Positions 23,238 through 30,568 of a DNA stretch of 64,000 nucleotides are shown piece after piece. How positions within the stretch are numbered: the stretch's first letter is position 1; every line of letters starts with the position of its first letter. The position numbers and the translations under genes were made by a program. This stretch comes from Candidatus Poribacteria bacterium (GTDB lineage Bacteria; Poribacteria; WGA-4E; PCPOR2b). The stretch spans positions 4,448,001 through 4,512,000 of the forward strand of contig OZ220744.1 in the NCBI GenBank assembly GCA_965116925.1, in the 5' to 3' direction. The notes below the pieces were generated by a model, which searched no databases, was not told the DNA's origin, and worked only from the letters and a program-made list of their open reading frames with translations.

Positions 23238-24254
23238 TTGGGTGAAACGAAAACGAGGGACATTCAGAAAGAGATGGGTGGTAACCACATACCTGTTCTA
23301 GTCGATGAAGTGATTCAATTTTTAGAACCGAAAAATCACGGTTTTTATGTGGATGGCACAGTTGGATTAGGTGGGCATGCCGCTGTTATTTTACATCAGT
23401 CTGCGCCGAAAGGGTTTCTACTTGGGATTGATTTGGACTCGGAGGCGTTGGCTATTGCCAAGCAGAAACTACATGAATACAAGGAACGGGTGACACTCGT
23501 TGATGGTAATTTTGCCCACTTGGATCGGCTGCACCAGTTGTCTCAGGGTTCGGGGGGAACGGAAGCAATGATTCCGCAAATTGATGGCATTTTACTAGAC
23601 CTCGGAGTGTCATCTTTGCAACTTGATACGCCAGCGAGAGGGTTTAGTTTCACCCACTCTGGTCCCTTAGATATGCGGATGGATACTAGCCAGTCTCTAT
23701 CAGCAGCGCGCGTCGTAAACCGCCATCCAGAGGACGCGCTTGCAATGATTTTTACGCAATTCGGTCAAGAGCGTTGGGCGAAAAAAATTGCGCGCCAGAT
23801 TGTTCACGCCCGAAAACGCAAGTCTATCTCAACAACCGGTCAACTGGCTGAAATCGTTCTGGATGCGATTCCCCCCAAATCAACAGGTTGGCGCATCCAT
23901 CCCGCGACACGGGTTTTTCAAGCGTTACGAATCTTTATTAACGATGAGCTTAAAAACCTGCATTCCGGGATACATTCCGCTGCTGCTGCTTTGAAGCCCG
24001 GTGGACGCTTATGCATCATCTCTTTCCATTCTCTCGAAGATCGAATTGTTAAAGAACAGTTTCGCACTCTATCGCGTGGCTGTATCTGCCCACCGAAGAC
24101 CCCTATCTGTGTGTGTCAGCATACACCTACTCTTCAAATACTAACCAAACGTCCAATAGTTCCAACCCCCGATGAAATTCGACACAATCCTCGATCCCGA
24201 AGCGCAAAATTACGGGTTGCGATGAAGATCTACGAATCTAAAACCCAAGATTAA
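23238..24254 (+). CDS. rsmH: 16S rRNA (cytosine1402-N4)-methyltransferase
   Basis: HIPVL, DGTVGLGGH, DLGVSSLQLD, HPATRVFQALRI, ISFHSLEDR, NPRSRSAKLR. Confidence 0.97.
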   Translation: MGETKTRDIQKEMGGNHIPVLVDEVIQFLEPKNHGFYVDGTVGLGGHAAVILHQSAPKGFLLGIDLDSEALAIAKQKLHEYKERVTLVDGNFAHLDRLHQLSQGSGGTEAMIPQIDGILLDLGVSSLQLDTPARGFSFTHSGPLDMRMDTSQSLSAARVVNRHPEDALAMIFTQFGQERWAKKIARQIVHARKRKSISTTGQLAEIVLDAIPPKSTGWRIHPATRVFQALRIFINDELKNLHSGIHSAAAALKPGGRLCIISFHSLEDRIVKEQFRTLSRGCICPPKTPICVCQHTPTLQILTKRPIVPTPDEIRHNPRSRSAKLRVAMKIYESKTQD

Positions 24255-24314
24255 ACGTTTCTTAAAAACCGGACGAGGCGGTTTGCAAAGGAATCATCAG
24301 AGACTATTACAATC

Positions 24315-24608
24315 ATGAAATATCAAAAACCAGTTCCATCGTCAAAATTTCATCCCTTTGCATACCTCGCGCTTGCCATTTATATTGGTATCTTTTTTTT
24401 AAGTGCATGGTTTGCGTCAAGCCAGCACAAGGTTGCGCTGCAAATGCGTGAGGACTTTGAGCAGCGAAGAGATCAACTCCACAACGAAATCAATAGGCTC
24501 AAAATACAGGAAACGAAACTCACTTCTATTGAACGGATTCACGAAATCGCTAAGGATCTTCAGATGGTTCAACCCTCCCAGCAAGCCCATGTGCTGCGTG
24601 CTGATTAA
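24315..24608 (+). CDS. ftsL: Cell division protein FtsL-like
   Basis: One TM helix plus coiled coil, ERIHEIAKDLQM; lies between rsmH and ftsI. Confidence 0.8.
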   Translation: MKYQKPVPSSKFHPFAYLALAIYIGIFFLSAWFASSQHKVALQMREDFEQRRDQLHNEINRLKIQETKLTSIERIHEIAKDLQMVQPSQQAHVLRAD

Positions 24609-24627
24609 GATCTGTGAATCGAGTGTT

Positions 24628-24735
24628 TATAGTGGATCTTAGAATTAATGAAACACCCAAAATCGGCGCAGTTGCAAACAGCGCCTACTAAACATGGGGA
24701 GCGAAAGTGTTCATTTATTTTTTGAATTCACTATA
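24628..24735. mobile_element. MITE-like element type A, copy 1
   Basis: TATAGTGGATC...GAATTCACTATA inverted ends; near-copy at 47157-47263. Confidence 0.75.
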
Positions 24736-24921
24736 ATTGCGTGCTCAATCTTTGGGACATCACAGAATACACCCTTCCTTGGGGCTGTTTCCTACAGTGT
24801 GATTTGTGAACGTGAAATGTAGTGGGTGAAATGCTTCATGTTTCAGGCAAGCAATTCAATCTGTGTGGAGTTCTTCACTAGTCGTGCACGCTGTTACACT
24901 TCTGCATTAATACCTTATGAA

Positions 24922-26365
24922 AATACTGGAAACAATCCCAATGCTTTAGCGTTGGATCAGACCGCGTAATTTTAGTTGATTTTCTTGGCAAAGTAGGGGG
25001 TACTTGGTTTGTCTTTCGGTGGGAGAATGTCAACTCTATCGCACGATAGGGTCTGCCACAATCCACTGACATGGACACGAAAGACAGAAAGACACTTCCA
25101 ATGTTAAAAACTCACAAAATCGCATTAGATCCAAACAACATTCAATCGACCCAATTCGCTCAACATTGTGGGTATGCACGTGTTGCGTATAATCACGTTC
25201 TTGCTGATTTCAAGGACGGCTTAACCAATGGGGAGTGGCGTTCACACATAGAGTTAAACAAGCGATTTAACTCAGTTAAACGTGAGCAATATGAGTGGTG
25301 TGACGAGTTAAATCAACGTGCTGCTTATAATGCGATTTACTTTAATTTCCACAACGCAGTCAAACGTTGGCAGTCAGGTGAGAGTCGGTTTCCGAAATTC
25401 AAGAAGCGTTCTAAGGGTCAAAGTTTTCAAGCAGACGCCGGTCGAGGCACAACTATTATCGAAGGACAGCGTATAAAACTACCCAAGATAGGTTGGGTTC
25501 GCATGTTCCAAACACTTCGACACCTCGGCACTATCGTCAAAGTTGTAATCTCAAAGACTGCTAACCGTTGGTTCGCTTCTATCACTGTAGATACTTTCGC
25601 TAACGATACTATTGCTGCCAATGGACATCTGCCTGTTGTTGGTGTTGACGTAGGTATCAATCACTTAGCGGTCACGTCCGAAGGTGTATATCACGAAAAC
25701 CCCAAAGCCTTAAAGCGTTACGAGCGGAAGCTAAAACGGTTGCAACGTCAGTTAAGCCGTCAGCAAAAAGGGAGTCGGAATTGGCATAAGACGAAAGCGA
25801 AACTTGCCAAGCTACACTACCGTATCGCCTGCATTCGACAGGACGCTCAACACAAGGCAACAACGGGTATCGTCAATGGTGCGAGTCGTATTGGGATTGA
25901 GTCGCTAAATGTCGCCGGTATGTTAAAAAACCACAGATTTGCAAAGGCATTATCGGACGCTTCATTATCCAGTTTTCTGTCTATGCTCACATACAAAGCA
26001 GAACGGTTAGGCGTTAAAATTGTAGAGGCAGACCCCTTCTACCCGTCGAGTAAGACGTGCTCGGCTTGTGGGGCAAAAGACAAAGGCCTGTCACTATCGG
26101 ATAGGACTTACCATTGCAGCGATTGTGGGCATACCCAAGACCGAGACCTTAACGCTGCGATAAATCTACGAACCGTCGCCGTGGGACACACGGAGACGTA
26201 AAACGCTTGTCCGCAAGGATCCCGATTTATCGGGGTGGAGAGATAGTAAGACCACACCAGCCATACGTGGCTTGTCTCGTCGAAACAAGAAAATAGCATG
26301 GAGATACTAATGTCTACCAATCAGTCTATTCAGAATCCCAAGGCTTTAGACTTGGGAGCAGTCAA
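24922..26365 (+). mobile_element. Non-autonomous IS200/IS605-family element (TnpB only) inserted in the 5' end of ftsI
   Basis: Left hairpin CAAT-CCCAATGCTTTAGCGTTGG; right hairpin GAAT-CCCAAGGCTTTAGACTTGGG followed by TCAA at 26362-26365; excision restores the ftsI frame. Confidence 0.8.
25101..26201 (+). CDS. tnpB: RNA-guided endonuclease TnpB
   Basis: HKIALDPN N-terminus; RuvC D (VGVDVG), E (IGIESL), D (DRDLNAAINL); zinc finger CSAC/CSDC. Confidence 0.95.
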   Translation: MLKTHKIALDPNNIQSTQFAQHCGYARVAYNHVLADFKDGLTNGEWRSHIELNKRFNSVKREQYEWCDELNQRAAYNAIYFNFHNAVKRWQSGESRFPKFKKRSKGQSFQADAGRGTTIIEGQRIKLPKIGWVRMFQTLRHLGTIVKVVISKTANRWFASITVDTFANDTIAANGHLPVVGVDVGINHLAVTSEGVYHENPKALKRYERKLKRLQRQLSRQQKGSRNWHKTKAKLAKLHYRIACIRQDAQHKATTGIVNGASRIGIESLNVAGMLKNHRFAKALSDASLSSFLSMLTYKAERLGVKIVEADPFYPSSKTCSACGAKDKGLSLSDRTYHCSDCGHTQDRDLNAAINLRTVAVGHTET

Positions 26366-26385
26366 CAATATATCTTTTTCCCGGA
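26170..26385 (+). ncRNA. Predicted TnpB omegaRNA (right-end RNA) with guide from ftsI flank; 5' boundary approximate
   Basis: Overlaps tnpB 3' end and right end; AACGCTTGT..GGAGAG..GTAAGACC..GAAACAAGAA scaffold-like motifs; predicted guide CAATATATCTTTTTCCCGGA. Confidence 0.6.
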
Positions 26386-28130
26386 TTACAATTGTATGGG
26401 TCGGTTTGGAACTCTGCTTAGGATTATTGATAGGACGTTTGTTTCTAATCCAGTATGTACACGGTCAGGTGCTACGCGAACGTTCTGAGAATCAGCGTAA
26501 GACGCAAGTGGGTTCTCAGGCAAAGCGCGCTACGATTTTAGATCGGCACGGAAGCGTTTTTGCAATCAATCAGGACTTAATCTCAGTCTATGCTGACCCA
26601 AAAGCGTTGAGAGATAAACCTGATGAAATTGCTGGTAAACTTGCGCCGCTACTTGATGTCTCGGAAGATAGACTTTTGTCGGTATTGCAGCAAAAGAAAA
26701 GGCGTTTTGTTTGGCTGAAAAGGAACTTAGATTATGAACGTCTTAACGCTATCCGCCAAGTCACTAGAAACATTTATGGGGTCGGATATCGAACCCATGG
26801 AAAACGGTCCTACCCAAAAGACGAGCTAGCGTCTCATATTATTGGATACACCAACTTTGAAAATAGAGGTATCGACGGGATTGAACACCAATACGATACT
26901 TACCTAAGTACTAGCAACAAAAGTAATCTTCCAGAATCACAGCCAAAAAGTAATCGAATCACTGCCGATGGTAAGAGACGCCCAATTCGTCCACCACAAC
27001 TTTATCAACAAGCGGGGCAATATGGCCGCAGCATTGTCCTTACACTTGATGAGTACCTCCAACATATCACAGAAACGGAACTGACGGCCGGTTGCGAGGA
27101 ATGGCAAGCGAGAGCAGGGAGTGCAGTCGTCATGCATTCCAAAAGCGGCGAGATTTTGGCATTAGCAAATTATCCGAACTACAATCTCAATCACTACTCA
27201 AGGAGTGAAGAGTCAGCCAAGCGAAATCGCGCCATCTGGATGCAATACGAGCCCGGTTCTGTATTTAAGATTGTTACTGCTGCTGCACTCCTCAACGAGA
27301 AGCTGATGTCTCCGGACTCGCGTGAGTATTGCGAGATGGGAGAATATCGTTTGTCCAATGGGCATGTTGTTCACGATATTAAGCCCAATGCGTGGCTAAC
27401 GTTCAGCGAAATTATCGCAAAATCTAGTAATATCGGTGTCCTCAAGGCTGCAAGACATCTTGATAAGGAGCAGTTGGAGGTCTATACGCGCCGGTTCGGA
27501 TTCGGTAAAAAAACCGGTATCGATCTGCCTTACGAACGCGTCGGCAGCTTGAGAGGCATCCAGAAGTGGGATGACTACACGATTGCCTCTGTTCCGTTTG
27601 GACAGGGAATTTCCGTGACACCTTTGCAGATGTTGAATGCTATTAATGTCATCGCTACCAAGGGTGTGCTGCTAAAGCCGTATATCACTCGGCAAATTAT
27701 TGATAAGGACGGAAGCGTGATAGAGCAGTCGTCCCCCAAGCCAATTCGTCGCGTCATTTCTGCAGAAACCGCGCAGGCAATGACACAAATGCTTGTCGGG
27801 GTGACGGAAGTCGGCGGCGGGTTGAGGGCACGGGTCGAAGGATATGCTGTTGCTGGCAAAACCGGCACAGCACAGAAAGCGGAACGTGGAAAGGGATACG
27901 TCAAAGGCAAAGTGACTGTTACTTTTGCAGGTTTTCTTCCGGCGGAGGATGCGTTACTCTCAATTATTGTTGTTGTTGATGAACCGGTGGGTGCCCCGTT
28001 GAGCAGTCGTGTCACCGCCCCGATGTTCCAGAGGATTGCGAGTGAAGCGATGTGGTATTTGAATCAAAGGGATCTCTTTGTTCAGAAATCAACTTCAAGC
28101 TATGCAGGAAACCAATCAGCACTTCATTAA
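26310..28130 (+). CDS. ftsI: Peptidoglycan transpeptidase FtsI/PBP3 (N-terminal 18 aa encoded by IS right end)
   Basis: RATILDRHG, EPGSVFK (SxxK), SSN, KTGTAQK; dcw position. Confidence 0.92.
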   Translation: MSTNQSIQNPKALDLGAVNNISFSRITIVWVGLELCLGLLIGRLFLIQYVHGQVLRERSENQRKTQVGSQAKRATILDRHGSVFAINQDLISVYADPKALRDKPDEIAGKLAPLLDVSEDRLLSVLQQKKRRFVWLKRNLDYERLNAIRQVTRNIYGVGYRTHGKRSYPKDELASHIIGYTNFENRGIDGIEHQYDTYLSTSNKSNLPESQPKSNRITADGKRRPIRPPQLYQQAGQYGRSIVLTLDEYLQHITETELTAGCEEWQARAGSAVVMHSKSGEILALANYPNYNLNHYSRSEESAKRNRAIWMQYEPGSVFKIVTAAALLNEKLMSPDSREYCEMGEYRLSNGHVVHDIKPNAWLTFSEIIAKSSNIGVLKAARHLDKEQLEVYTRRFGFGKKTGIDLPYERVGSLRGIQKWDDYTIASVPFGQGISVTPLQMLNAINVIATKGVLLKPYITRQIIDKDGSVIEQSSPKPIRRVISAETAQAMTQMLVGVTEVGGGLRARVEGYAVAGKTGTAQKAERGKGYVKGKVTVTFAGFLPAEDALLSIIVVVDEPVGAPLSSRVTAPMFQRIASEAMWYLNQRDLFVQKSTSSYAGNQSALH

Positions 28131-28200: not shown

Positions 28201-29016
28201 GTGAGATGCCTGATTTGCATTACAATATTGGCACTGGTCGTTGTCAACCAAGCTGCAAGTGACGTTCGGGCTGTCCCAGACGTGGTAGGTTTAGCCTCCG
28301 GGGGAGAGTTGGTTATTGTGGGGAAACTGTTAGCAGCAGAGGAGGAAACAGACCCACAGATTCAGGTGCAGTATACAGATGTCGTCGTAGAGGTTGTCCA
28401 AGTTATTCGGAATATAACAGAACAGGAGATAAAGGTCGGTGCCACTATCAATTTTCGCCTCCCTGACGTGCCAATCGGTTATGGCAGATTTGAAGCGGAG
28501 TTTAGCAAAGAGGAAGTGGGTGATTTGCTTCTTTTGTCGCTAAGACGACCTCACCCCCGAATGACAGCGGGCCGCAGAAAAGGGTTTGACACCATTTTTG
28601 ATGTTTATGGGGGAGACCACGGGAAACATACCGTTAGAATCAAAGATGACCTTCCTATGGTGTATCTGTTTGGGCTGAAACGCAGGGTTGAAGACCCACA
28701 ATTTCGACGTTCACGTAATCGACGATTATATAAAGACCGTTATCAAGAGCTGGAGATTGGATTGCCTCTTGACTGGGTCTTAGAAGTGATGGATATGGCG
28801 ATAGCCGTTGATGCTAGGAATCCGGCGAAAAACCCAAAATCTCCCGAAGACATACCCGCAGAAATCAGGCTTCAATATGAACGGCTTAGAAGTTTAGAAA
28901 AATTGGTTCGCAAATTAGCACGGGACGGCAGGTCAGAAGCCTCTATTATCAAAACTGCCCGCAAAGGACTTAATCAAGTTAAAGAGGAATTAGACCTAGA
29001 AGAAGGGAACGAATAA
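28201..29016 (+). CDS. Hypothetical secreted protein inside dcw cluster
   Basis: AAGGAG before GTG; signal-peptide-like N-terminus; 271 aa. Confidence 0.65.
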   Translation: MRCLICITILALVVVNQAASDVRAVPDVVGLASGGELVIVGKLLAAEEETDPQIQVQYTDVVVEVVQVIRNITEQEIKVGATINFRLPDVPIGYGRFEAEFSKEEVGDLLLLSLRRPHPRMTAGRRKGFDTIFDVYGGDHGKHTVRIKDDLPMVYLFGLKRRVEDPQFRRSRNRRLYKDRYQELEIGLPLDWVLEVMDMAIAVDARNPAKNPKSPEDIPAEIRLQYERLRSLEKLVRKLARDGRSEASIIKTARKGLNQVKEELDLEEGNE

Positions 29017-29104: not shown

Positions 29105-30568
29105 GTGGTGAACTTACATCGCTTACTCAAAGGAGTAAATATTCTCTCGTCAACTGGGGTGCTTGACAAAGACGTTACCGGCATTGCGAGCGACAGTCGA
29201 GCCGTGGAGCCGGGGTACGCCTTTGTCTGCTATGAAGGGGTCAACGTTGATGGGCACACCTTTATTCCACAAGCCCTCCAAAATGGCGCAACAACGATTG
29301 TTGGGGAAAAACCGGAGTCGATCCCATCGGGTATCACCTATATCCAAACGCCAAACGGACGTATCGCGTTCTCGCTCATCGCAGCAAACTGGTACGAGAA
29401 TCCGGCAGATCGGCTGAAACTAATAGGCATTACCGGCACGAACGGCAAGACCTCAACAGCACATTTAGCGCATTCGATCTTCAACGCTGCGGGACTGAAT
29501 TCGGGGCTCATGGGCACGGTAGGGACCCATTACGCAGATGTCTTTGTGGAGCCAACGATTACGACGCTTGAGCCTTTGACGCTTCACGGGTTATTTCGAG
29601 ACATTGCGGATGCTGGCGTAGATTATGTGATCATGGAAACCTCATCGCAAGGGCTTGCACAACACCGATTGGCTGGGCTCACCTTTGAAACGGCGGTTTT
29701 CACCAATCTAACACAAGATCATCTCGATTACCATGGAACGATGGAAGAATACCTAAACGCCAAGATGATGCTCTTTCGGCAACTCAATCCTAACAACGGT
29801 CTGGCAATCCTGAACGCAGACGATCCCGCCTCCGATTCAATTCGTCATCAAATCACCCTCCCAAGCCTTACCTTTGGGGTTGAACAACCGGCGGATTTGT
29901 CAGTCAGCAATATCGAATCAACACTTAAACGGCTCTCATTCCTTGTGGATACACCGAAGGGAAAAATCTCAGCGAATCTGCGCCTGTTGGGGGATTACAA
30001 CCTATATAACGCTCTCGCTGCGATTGGGATAGGGGTGCATCACGACTGTCCGCTTGAGGCGATCCAAGTGGGACTGGAATCTACCGTTGTGCCGGGGCGG
30101 TTTGAATTGGTTGACCGGGGACAGTCTTTTGCCGTTGTTGTGGACTACGCCCATACGCCCGACGGTTTGGAAAATCTGTTGATCGCTGCACGAAAAATTA
30201 CGCAGGGCAATTTAATCTCCGTCTTCGGCTGCGGCGGAGATCGGGACAGTGGCAAACGTCCGAAGATGGGCAATATCTCCGCAACCATCGCTGATCACAG
30301 CGTAATCACCTCCGACAACCCACGCACCGAAGAGCCAGACGCGATCCTTGCCGACATTGTGGAGGGTTTACCCAACGGCGTAAGTTACGATCTGATTCAG
30401 GACCGCCGGACTGCGATCGGTCATGCGATTGAGTTGGCGAAGAGTGGTGATCTTGTCGCTATTGCGGGCAAGGGGCATGAACCGTATCAAGAGATCAATG
30501 GCGTTCGATTTGATTTCGATGACAGGGAAGTCGCGGGGGAATTTCTTGACCAGTTGAAGGCGCACTGA
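29105..30568 (+). CDS. murE: UDP-N-acetylmuramoylalanyl-D-glutamate--2,6-diaminopimelate ligase
   Basis: GTNGKTS, DHLDYH, DYAHTPD, DNPR (meso-DAP-type motif), GKGHE. Confidence 0.97.
   Translation: MVNLHRLLKGVNILSSTGVLDKDVTGIASDSRAVEPGYAFVCYEGVNVDGHTFIPQALQNGATTIVGEKPESIPSGITYIQTPNGRIAFSLIAANWYENPADRLKLIGITGTNGKTSTAHLAHSIFNAAGLNSGLMGTVGTHYADVFVEPTITTLEPLTLHGLFRDIADAGVDYVIMETSSQGLAQHRLAGLTFETAVFTNLTQDHLDYHGTMEEYLNAKMMLFRQLNPNNGLAILNADDPASDSIRHQITLPSLTFGVEQPADLSVSNIESTLKRLSFLVDTPKGKISANLRLLGDYNLYNALAAIGIGVHHDCPLEAIQVGLESTVVPGRFELVDRGQSFAVVVDYAHTPDGLENLLIAARKITQGNLISVFGCGGDRDSGKRPKMGNISATIADHSVITSDNPRTEEPDAILADIVEGLPNGVSYDLIQDRRTAIGHAIELAKSGDLVAIAGKGHEPYQEINGVRFDFDDREVAGEFLDQLKAH

Follow-up and report, generated by a model that had tools for sequence, protein, structure and literature searches.

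A 64,000-nucleotide stretch of a Candidatus Poribacteria genome (assembly GCA_965116925.1, contig OZ220744.1, positions 4,448,001 to 4,512,000 of the forward strand; hereafter the window) contains the division gene ftsI with a mobile element that encodes the RNA-guided nuclease TnpB lodged directly behind its start codon. We propose, with a probability of about 0.8, that this element inserted in the sense orientation after the ATGAA of ftsI and that a Shine–Dalgarno (SD) motif and an ATG in its right end keep the gene translated, without splicing or excision. The evidence comprises the insertion point, the empty alleles of relatives, the phase relation between target and element, recurrence at other genes, conservation of the start cassette and its frame, and purifying selection on the occupied genes. 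An initial annotation, made from the letters of the window, had pointed to the arrangement. Every sequence detail and coordinate that it listed is found in place, and comparison with related genomes supports its interpretation and widens it from one gene to a family-wide trait.

An element behind the ftsI start codon

The features on which the argument depends are the following.

24917..24921, + strand: native ftsI ATG plus AA (from the occupied allele and the empty sites of relatives)
24922..26365, + strand, sense to ftsI: tnpB-only IS200/IS605 element, 1,444 bp (from other copies and empty sites)
24933–24936, + strand: left-end guide CAAT (from the sequence)
24937–24956, + strand: left-end hairpin, CCCAATGC-TTTA-GCGTTGGA (from the sequence)
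25071..26201, + strand: tnpB, 376-codon open reading frame (Pfam OrfB_IS605, Cas12f1-like TNB and HTH_OrfB_IS605)
26202..26365, + strand: right end 3′ of the tnpB stop, presumed omega RNA scaffold (by analogy with ISDra2)
26300..26312, + strand: SD motif GGAG (26300–26303), 6-nt spacer and ATG (26310–26312), conserved in right ends
26310..26363, + strand: 18-codon element-encoded leader, MSTNQSIQNPKALDLGAV, open and in frame, followed by NNISFSR...
26310..28130, + strand: ftsI as presumably expressed, 606 aa, comprising the 18-aa leader and 588 native residues (open reading frame and Pfam)
26333–26336, + strand: right-end guide GAAT (from the sequence)
26337–26356, + strand: right-end hairpin (three pairs with compensatory changes among 40 distinct copies)
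26362–26365, + strand: right-end cleavage tetranucleotide TCAA (from the sequence)
26366..26381, + strand: presumed guide portion of the omega RNA, 16 nt, the first ftsI bases after the insertion (by the ISDra2/IS608 paradigm)

The window genome is a single 6.47-Mb contig, and other copies of the element within it fix the boundaries to the base. The copies that define them (L002, L003, L004, L005/L006, L010, L012 and L013) are alike up to ...GGGAGCAGTCAA and from (A/T)TGAA on, and diverge completely outside. The left boundary is therefore ...TGAA and the right boundary ...GTCAA, which are the limits (24922–26365) that had been proposed from the window itself. Near full-length paralogues are L002 (90%) and L004 (83%); L003 (92% identical) lacks the left end, L005 and L006 are miniature, internally deleted copies, and L010, L012 and L013 belong to the short derivatives. 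Because the window element differs by 8–10% from its closest paralogues, it is not brand new.

In-silico removal of 24922–26365 leaves ATG-AAC-AAT-ATA-TCT-TTT. An in-frame TAA three codons 5′ of the native ATG in this reconstructed allele makes any other upstream start impossible, so that the ATG at 24917 is the native one. The target of the element, TGAA, occupies 24918–24921, and the native ATG now opens a 10-codon stub, MKILETIPML-stop (24917–24949). We searched native FtsI in 40 related genomes and read the DNA 5′ of each match. The predicted empty junction is present in relatives: 17 of 19 same-genus genomes have the site ...ccct ATG AAx AAT ATA CCT TTT TCC CGG, with nothing between ATGAA and the next base. 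Their FtsI begins M-(N/K/V)-N-I-P-F-S-R-I-T-I-V-W and not MSTNQ, the start that the initial annotation had named as evidence against its own reading. The genome nearest by FtsI (G005, 93% identity) has an empty site, and the ftsI insertion of the window genome (G000) is lineage-specific with respect to this sister. Contigs of the public run X1 span both junctions with 0 differences (24708–24946 and 26277–26452), and those of run X2 span 24708–24946; one of these runs may come from the source sample. The joint 24921 to 26366, which would mark an empty allele or a splice, does not occur in contigs of runs X1, X2, X15 and X16; this is weak evidence, as absence in contigs proves nothing.

The right end carries a probable replacement start. 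From the ATG at 26310 to the element end there are 56 nt, or 18 codons plus 2 nt, which is the same phase as ATG-AA. Target and element both end in AA, and the element ATG is therefore in phase with any ATG-AA start, with the second codon rebuilt. The cassette, which occupies the last 66 nt of the element, thus has the GGAG-6nt-ATG and the in-frame 18-aa leader that had been claimed for it. The native ftsI ATG has no SD motif; the element ATG has GGAG. Among 40 distinct right ends that were aligned, 39 retain GGAG and 38 the ATG, and length variation is confined to the spacer between them (6, 7 or 8 nt), with no insertion or deletion in the 56 nt after the ATG. Each of the 53 right ends recovered by pattern search has this 56-nt stretch open and in frame, and 5 later ends were read by eye. 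The leader peptide varies with the hairpin (NPNVSTLG, NPKSLGLG, NPKDLSLG and NPKALDLG); what is conserved is openness and phase, not the amino-acid sequence. A further ATG four codons upstream (26298) is in frame in some copies only.

The gene behind the cassette is identified as ftsI by its domains and position. Its penicillin-binding-protein open reading frame spans 26298–28130 (PBP_dimer, 1.1e-18; Transpeptidase, 1.2e-69), its product contains the hydrophobic stretch IVWVGLELCLGLLIGRLFLI as membrane anchor, and the gene order rsmH-ftsL-ftsI-...-murE is that of FtsI, a class B penicillin-binding protein. A second intact ftsI, which would have weakened the case, is absent from the genome: this locus is the single strong match and encodes the only class B penicillin-binding protein found there, and the only other match is weak (E = 4e-8) and lies in an 821-aa open frame. 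All 588 native codons are intact, with a ratio of nonsynonymous to synonymous substitution rates (dN/dS) of 0.158 relative to G005.

The ends carry the hallmarks of the IS200/IS605 family. There are subterminal imperfect hairpins and no terminal inverted repeats, and insertion is 3′ of NTGAA without target duplication, the empty sites of relatives being the flanks joined with nothing gained or lost. In IS608, a guide tetranucleotide 5′ of the hairpin foot recognizes the cleavage tetranucleotide, and the right end carries the pair GAAT...TCAA. The initial annotation had applied this rule to both ends of the window element, and covariation supports it at both. At the right end GAAT goes with TCAA and GAAC with TCAG (T:A in 31, C:G in 8 and other in 1; n = 40), and at the left end CAAT goes with the target TGAA and CAAG with TGAC. 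The claimed TGAA target is borne out by the readable left junctions, all of which follow NTGAA (relatives, n = 22: 13 ATGAA, 6 TTGAA, 2 CTGAA and 1 GTGAA). The pairing is judged here by covariation alone, and the element has no tnpA, the gene for the Y1 (HUH) transposase of the family. It is at best a non-autonomous, tnpB-only member of IS200/IS605.

Some further observations concern the element ends. At the base of the left hairpin, the window copy has A at position 24956, where the other compared copies and all contigs mapped there have G. A joint from 24954 to 26274 occurs in contigs of X1 and X2; its simplest source is a miniature derivative at another locus. The empty ftsI allele of one relative (L025, G007) starts ATG GTC AAT (M-V-N-I-P) where relatives have ATG AAC AAT; the right end of the element has the same GTC as its final complete codon, and the allele may be the footprint of an imprecise loss.

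Recurrence of the start cassette

A right-end pattern search of the window genome gave 32 matches. Seven have an SD motif and an in-frame start, as an ATG at −56 (n = 5) or a GTG at −47 after GGAGAT (n = 2, miniature copies), and open reading frames of 296, 588, 197 and 283 codons continue in frame from four of them. The remaining 25 matches all have fewer than 100 in-frame codons, most with a stop five codons before the end. The three fusions besides ftsI involve a RimK-type ATP-grasp protein, an HD-domain protein and a xylose-isomerase-like TIM-barrel protein. Element-free orthologues start exactly at the junction, with ATG AAA ATT GGC (rimK), ATG AAC A(A/G)T CGG (HD) and ATG AAA TTG AGT (TIM-barrel), and the Rimk_N profile begins at its position 2 on residue 1 of the rimK open reading frame. 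Among the 19 other genomes shown, the rimK site is empty in 18 and occupied in G005. For the HD gene, in a comparison that excluded one contig-end locus (L090), 9 of 12 same-genus genomes have an empty site, the site of G005 is occupied, and the other 2 genomes contain an unrelated 33-nt in-frame insert. The TIM-barrel site is empty in 11 of 11. G000 and G005 share the rimK and HD insertions by descent: the left junctions agree and the later internal deletions differ, so that both insertions predate the split of these genomes. Both genes show a dN/dS of 0.11 (at dS of 0.24 and 0.36); in each case the last 60 nt of the right end have 0 of 60 differences, and the first 300 nt of the genes have 18 and 25.

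The start of ftsI has been hit at least twice independently in the genus. In G004 and G019, an element of another subfamily (~75% identical, with a different left end) lies directly after the ATGAA of ftsI; it ends in TCAG, so that ftsI codon 2 is AGC. In G004 the tnpB of this element is disrupted ahead of the zinc finger; in G019 half of it is deleted, and a 772-bp remnant with a mutated left hairpin is left. Both genomes keep GGAG-6nt-ATG, the 18 codons and a full ftsI, and dN/dS between their ftsI genes is 0.147 at a dS of 0.44. In the ftsI tree, each of the three occupied genomes has an empty sister, which points either to gain on several occasions or to early gains followed by precise loss.

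Across the genus, 13 of 20 genomes have matches to the terminal 80 nt of the element, and the flanks of all full-length matches define 66 loci. A strict pattern recovered 53 distinct right ends, of which 39 have at least 100 in-frame codons downstream, with 34 distinct N-termini among these fusions. The 13 loci that it missed were assigned with a looser pattern and by eye, as 5 leader-bearing (7, 2, 78, 207 and 480 codons downstream) and 8 leaderless ends, which brings the fusions to 41 of 58 leader-bearing right ends. For comparison, 14.1% of the 42,725 WTGAA sites in the window genome have at least 100 in-frame codons downstream, and 3.8% have these together with a stop within 20 codons upstream (binomial test, P ≈ 1e-22, which is overstated as copies shared by descent are not independent).

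Pfam domains in 30 of the downstream open reading frames begin at residues 1–15 and at profile positions 1–3, which is what a junction at the extreme N-terminus would give. They are NAD_binding_2, GIDA, CTP_transf_like, two GFO_IDH_MocA, DHBP_synthase with GTP_cyclohydro2, Formyl_trans_N, Flavoprotein, two Sulfatase, His_Phos_1, DAO and Thiolase_N, among others; judged by their Pfam domains, the fused genes are of the mnmG, nadD, ribBA, fmt, ubiX and nadK type. Among the 14 unfused strict-pattern copies, 11 lie 3–78 nt upstream of a same-strand open reading frame start. The family as a whole favours gene 5′ ends in the sense orientation, with most copies of the leader-bearing clade on codon 1–2 of a host gene, and the clade was found only in Candidatus Poribacteria genomes.

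Leaderless relatives of the element serve as a control. A TnpB search in one genome per species gave 80 loci, all in Candidatus Poribacteria metagenome-assembled genomes, and the right end was recognized in 62; this set overlaps the 66 genus loci, and copies shared by descent are not independent. At least 100 in-frame codons follow 32 of 42 leader-bearing ends and 3 of 20 leaderless ends (Fisher's exact test, P = 7e-6). The 20 leaderless right ends are those of sister lineages, with two extra bases 5′ of the hairpin and no in-frame start. Some leaderless elements (L198, L200, L201 and L251) use the same TGAA target; the cassette, and not the target alone, therefore goes with residence at start codons.

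Several other observations were made on these copies. Unfused copies (L108, L113, L114, L118, L120, L124, L149, L150, L152 and L161) mostly lie a few to a few dozen bases 5′ of a same-strand SD-ATG, and the leaderless cousins L126, L167 and L169 likewise lie mostly just 5′ of the SD-ATG of a same-strand gene. A second right-end subfamily, with ~20 sites in G000, ends GGGAGTA(C/T)GTCAA, and its tail, one base longer, puts a TAG in frame; none of its sites is fused to an open reading frame, and it served as a frame control only. The native rimK ATG is lost behind the element in G000 (L052) and G005 (L053), where a 15-nt deletion relative to G001 leaves TTGAA. The HD-gene insert of G011 (L080) and G009 (L083) follows codon 4, contains a small GAAT-flanked hairpin and adds 11 residues; the insert is unrelated to the element studied here.

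Alternative explanations

FtsI might be translated from a start other than 26310. The candidates are the ATG at 26298, the TTG at 26352 in the right hairpin and re-initiation after the tnpB stop; all are open and in frame, and the pairing of GGAG with leader codons 2–3 might disfavour 26310. The ATG at 26298, however, has no SD motif, and in other copies its counterpart shares the frame only where the spacer has 6 nt, whereas the ATG at −56 is in frame in all. The TTG, at −14, lies inside the hairpin and has no SD motif either, and the tnpB stop is 108 nt upstream of 26310. We consider a different start unlikely on these grounds. It is likewise improbable, in our judgement, that the SD-ATG leader is a by-product of constraint on the guide RNA and hairpin, with residence at starts reflecting a common (A/T)TGAA target and the interrupted genes surviving in some other way. 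ATGAA is a common start context (~1,622 start-like WTGAA sites in the genome), and the cassette region overlaps both the DNA hairpin and the presumed guide-RNA scaffold. Yet leaderless sister elements, which use the same TGAA target or are close cousins, do not exceed the background at starts (3/20 against 32/42), insertions and deletions occur only in the spacer 5′ of the ATG, decayed elements retain the cassette, and the occupied genes of essential type are under purifying selection.

Two further readings would leave the cassette without a role. A knockout of ftsI, whether as a young pseudogene or with functional FtsI supplied solely by cells or chromosome copies from which the element has been excised, could draw on the precise excision of IS200/IS605 elements and on the lineage-specific insertion in G000 (G005 being empty), and a very recent knockout would not yet show decay. 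Such a loss is very improbable for the only ftsI-type gene of the genome, with 588 intact native codons at a dN/dS of 0.158 relative to G005 and an element 8–10% removed from its closest paralogues, the more so as a dead element has persisted at this ftsI site in G004 and G019. Removal of the element from RNA, with use of the native ATG, would make it resemble the IStrons, relatives of IS200/IS605 or IS607 that reside inside genes by self-splicing (PMC13565253). The initial annotation had claimed tolerance without splicing, and an Rfam scan of 24300–26700 with E up to 1 is in line with this, returning a chance snoRNA match only, with no group I intron and no TnpB RNA motif. In addition, the ~150–180 nt between the left end and tnpB are too short for a ribozyme, and a conserved in-frame leader would be pointless if it were spliced out; we regard this route as exceedingly unlikely.

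A number of points weigh against rescue by the cassette as we propose it, or against parts of it. GGAG can pair with leader codons 2–3 in a small hairpin (helix 1), which could hide the ribosome site and might link translation to whatever binds the right-end RNA. The cassette stretch probably also serves the guide RNA, and part of its conservation may therefore be unrelated to translation. The threshold of at least 100 in-frame codons is a proxy for fusion that three leaderless elements also reach; in two of them (L211 and L216) the element lies in the 5′ untranslated region, and the native SD-ATG follows within a few codons. A simple model with random hits and equal tolerance of start-like (~1,622) and non-coding (~6,679) WTGAA sites predicts ~20% of copies at starts, and 71% are observed. 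The excess beyond rescue could come from target bias, from dependence on host transcription or from better retention, since imprecise deletion of a copy would not be tolerated at an essential start codon. No RNA-run contig is shown to extend from the right end into ftsI in this strain, and contigs carry no information on translation; one contig over 26354–26593 is that of a relative (20 differences), with 31 unmatched leading letters. As for mobility, the G-to-A change at 24956 weakens the left stem and may impair excision of the window copy, and none of the five Y1_Tnp homologues elsewhere in the genome has the element hairpins within 1.5 kb.

TnpB, proposed mechanism and known systems

The true start of tnpB is likely the ATG at 25101 (MLKTHKIAL), as in L002, whose open reading frame has 366 aa. 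The protein has the RuvC triad, the zinc-finger insertion and the N-terminal helix-turn-helix of TnpB, and it aligns over its whole length to ISDra2 TnpB (8h1j and 8bf8; 190 bits). The claim that its D-E-D residues are intact holds in this alignment: the RuvC Asp/Glu/Asp positions are kept (GVDVGI, IGIE and DRD...NAA), with catalytic residues placed by the ISDra2 numbering, and so are two CxxC pairs. By analogy with ISDra2, the right end presumably contains the omega RNA scaffold, which possibly starts inside the 3′ end of tnpB, and 26366–26381 would be its guide portion; the fold of 26130–26385 has a z of −2.17. The RNA-run contigs on the locus cover tnpB and the right end, and such contigs cannot show transcript ends. 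TGAA (24918–24921) is presumably the transposon-associated motif (TAM) of this TnpB, and by the same analogy a matching target at an empty allele would adjoin TGAA directly. The empty allele of G005 differs from the window at 1 of the 16 presumed guide bases.

We envisage the following course of events. An element inserts in sense immediately 3′ of the ATGAA at the start of ftsI and leaves the native ATG with its stub. Transcription would read through from the upstream division-gene cluster, and a terminator scan found no + strand terminator-like site in the element that would oppose it; a promoter scan found only 2 weak sigma-70-like sites 5′ of the element, fewer than in shuffles. Ribosomes would start at 26310 and make FtsI with 18 additional hydrophilic N-terminal residues on its short cytoplasmic tail, before the membrane helix, and neither splicing nor excision would be needed for ftsI expression. 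Guided by a right-end RNA that carries the ~16 nt of ftsI next to the junction, TnpB could, as we infer from the arrangement, cut an empty ATGAA allele, after which recombination would restore the element; the occupied allele would be protected, with TCAA in place of the TGAA TAM. A TnpA supplied in trans would mobilize the element, and decayed copies would keep the cassette as the permanent start of the gene.

In several respects the element resembles IS608 and ISDra2: it has subterminal hairpins, inserts 3′ of a fixed tetranucleotide without duplication, carries the GAAT...TCAA pair of IS608 and encodes a TnpB that scores 190 bits. Unlike them, it lacks tnpA, uses TGAA as target, encodes an SD motif, an ATG and an 18-codon fixed-phase leader in its right end, and has copies mainly on host start codons. 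With IS1341-type tnpB-only elements and palindrome-associated miniatures it shares a tnpB that stands alone, IS200/IS605 ends, miniature copies and presumed mobilization in trans, but it has a right-end start cassette, for which the literature searched holds no description in IS1341-type elements. Rickettsia palindromic elements and in-frame miniature elements add internal peptide segments, and insertion sequences with outward promoters supply transcription. In these cases, too, mobile DNA is tolerated by keeping the frame or by restoring expression, whereas the present element replaces the SD motif and start at a fixed phase and carries an RNA-guided nuclease.

Like the IStrons, which combine a group I intron with IS200/IS605 or IS607 (for example, CdISt1), the element bears TnpB, resides inside important genes without destroying them and has multifunctional ends (PMC13565253 for the IStrons). 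In contrast to IStrons, rescue here would act at translation, no ribozyme was found, only the first codon is concerned and the host protein gains 18 residues. The defining IStron traits, a group I ribozyme and splicing, are not seen, in that Rfam gave no match and the 24921–26366 joint is missing from the RNA-run contigs (the latter being weak evidence). The literature searched, which lay outside subscription journals and included 10.1101/2023.03.14.532601, holds no account of a transposon whose end supplies a start codon, and a term search of the text of a 2026 OMEGA review (PMC13565253) found neither 'start codon' nor 'translation'.

We lean towards a broader proposal, namely that this TnpB clade evolved a portable start cassette (an SD motif, an ATG and a bland 18-codon, 3n+2 leader) that opened the start codons of housekeeping genes as a niche. 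There, the element would be transcribed from host promoters, could not be lost sloppily and could be restored by its nuclease after precise excision, and the cassette would be domesticated once the nuclease decays, a third way beside self-splicing introns (IStrons included) and inteins. If rescue by the cassette is correct, IS200/IS605 elements can neutralize their own insertional damage at the level of translation, and essential genes become safe harbours without a ribozyme. It would explain the odd N-terminal peptide shared by many host proteins in these genomes, and it would be a warning for annotation, as such genes start inside a transposon end. One stretch of DNA would carry several codes, as hairpin and cleavage site, presumed guide-RNA scaffold, ribosome-binding site and coding sequence. 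For TnpB, the predictions are a TAM of sequence TGAA and guides directed at the opening codons of genes; ribosomes that load on this RNA might also compete with TnpB for it. A compact, start-restoring insert would also be a simple design idea for tagging genes in laboratory strains.

The surrounding features of the ftsI locus are these.

23238–24254, + strand: rsmH, methyltransferase-like open reading frame (name read from the translation)
24315..24608, + strand: ftsL, 97 aa (Pfam FtsL, 1.3e-7)
24609..24916, + strand: non-coding spacer between ftsL and ftsI, ~300 nt, with at least ~70 nt before the ATG conserved in same-genus genomes
29105–30568, + strand: murE, Mur-ligase-like open reading frame (name read from the translation)

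Between ftsI and murE, a 271-aa open reading frame (28201–29016) matches no Pfam family at E 0.001. In the spacer between ftsL and ftsI, 24701–24736 is a high-copy short repeat with many different loose contig ends on both sides; the depth of run X1 is 27,448 in the 24700–24766 bin and ~100 in the next bins.

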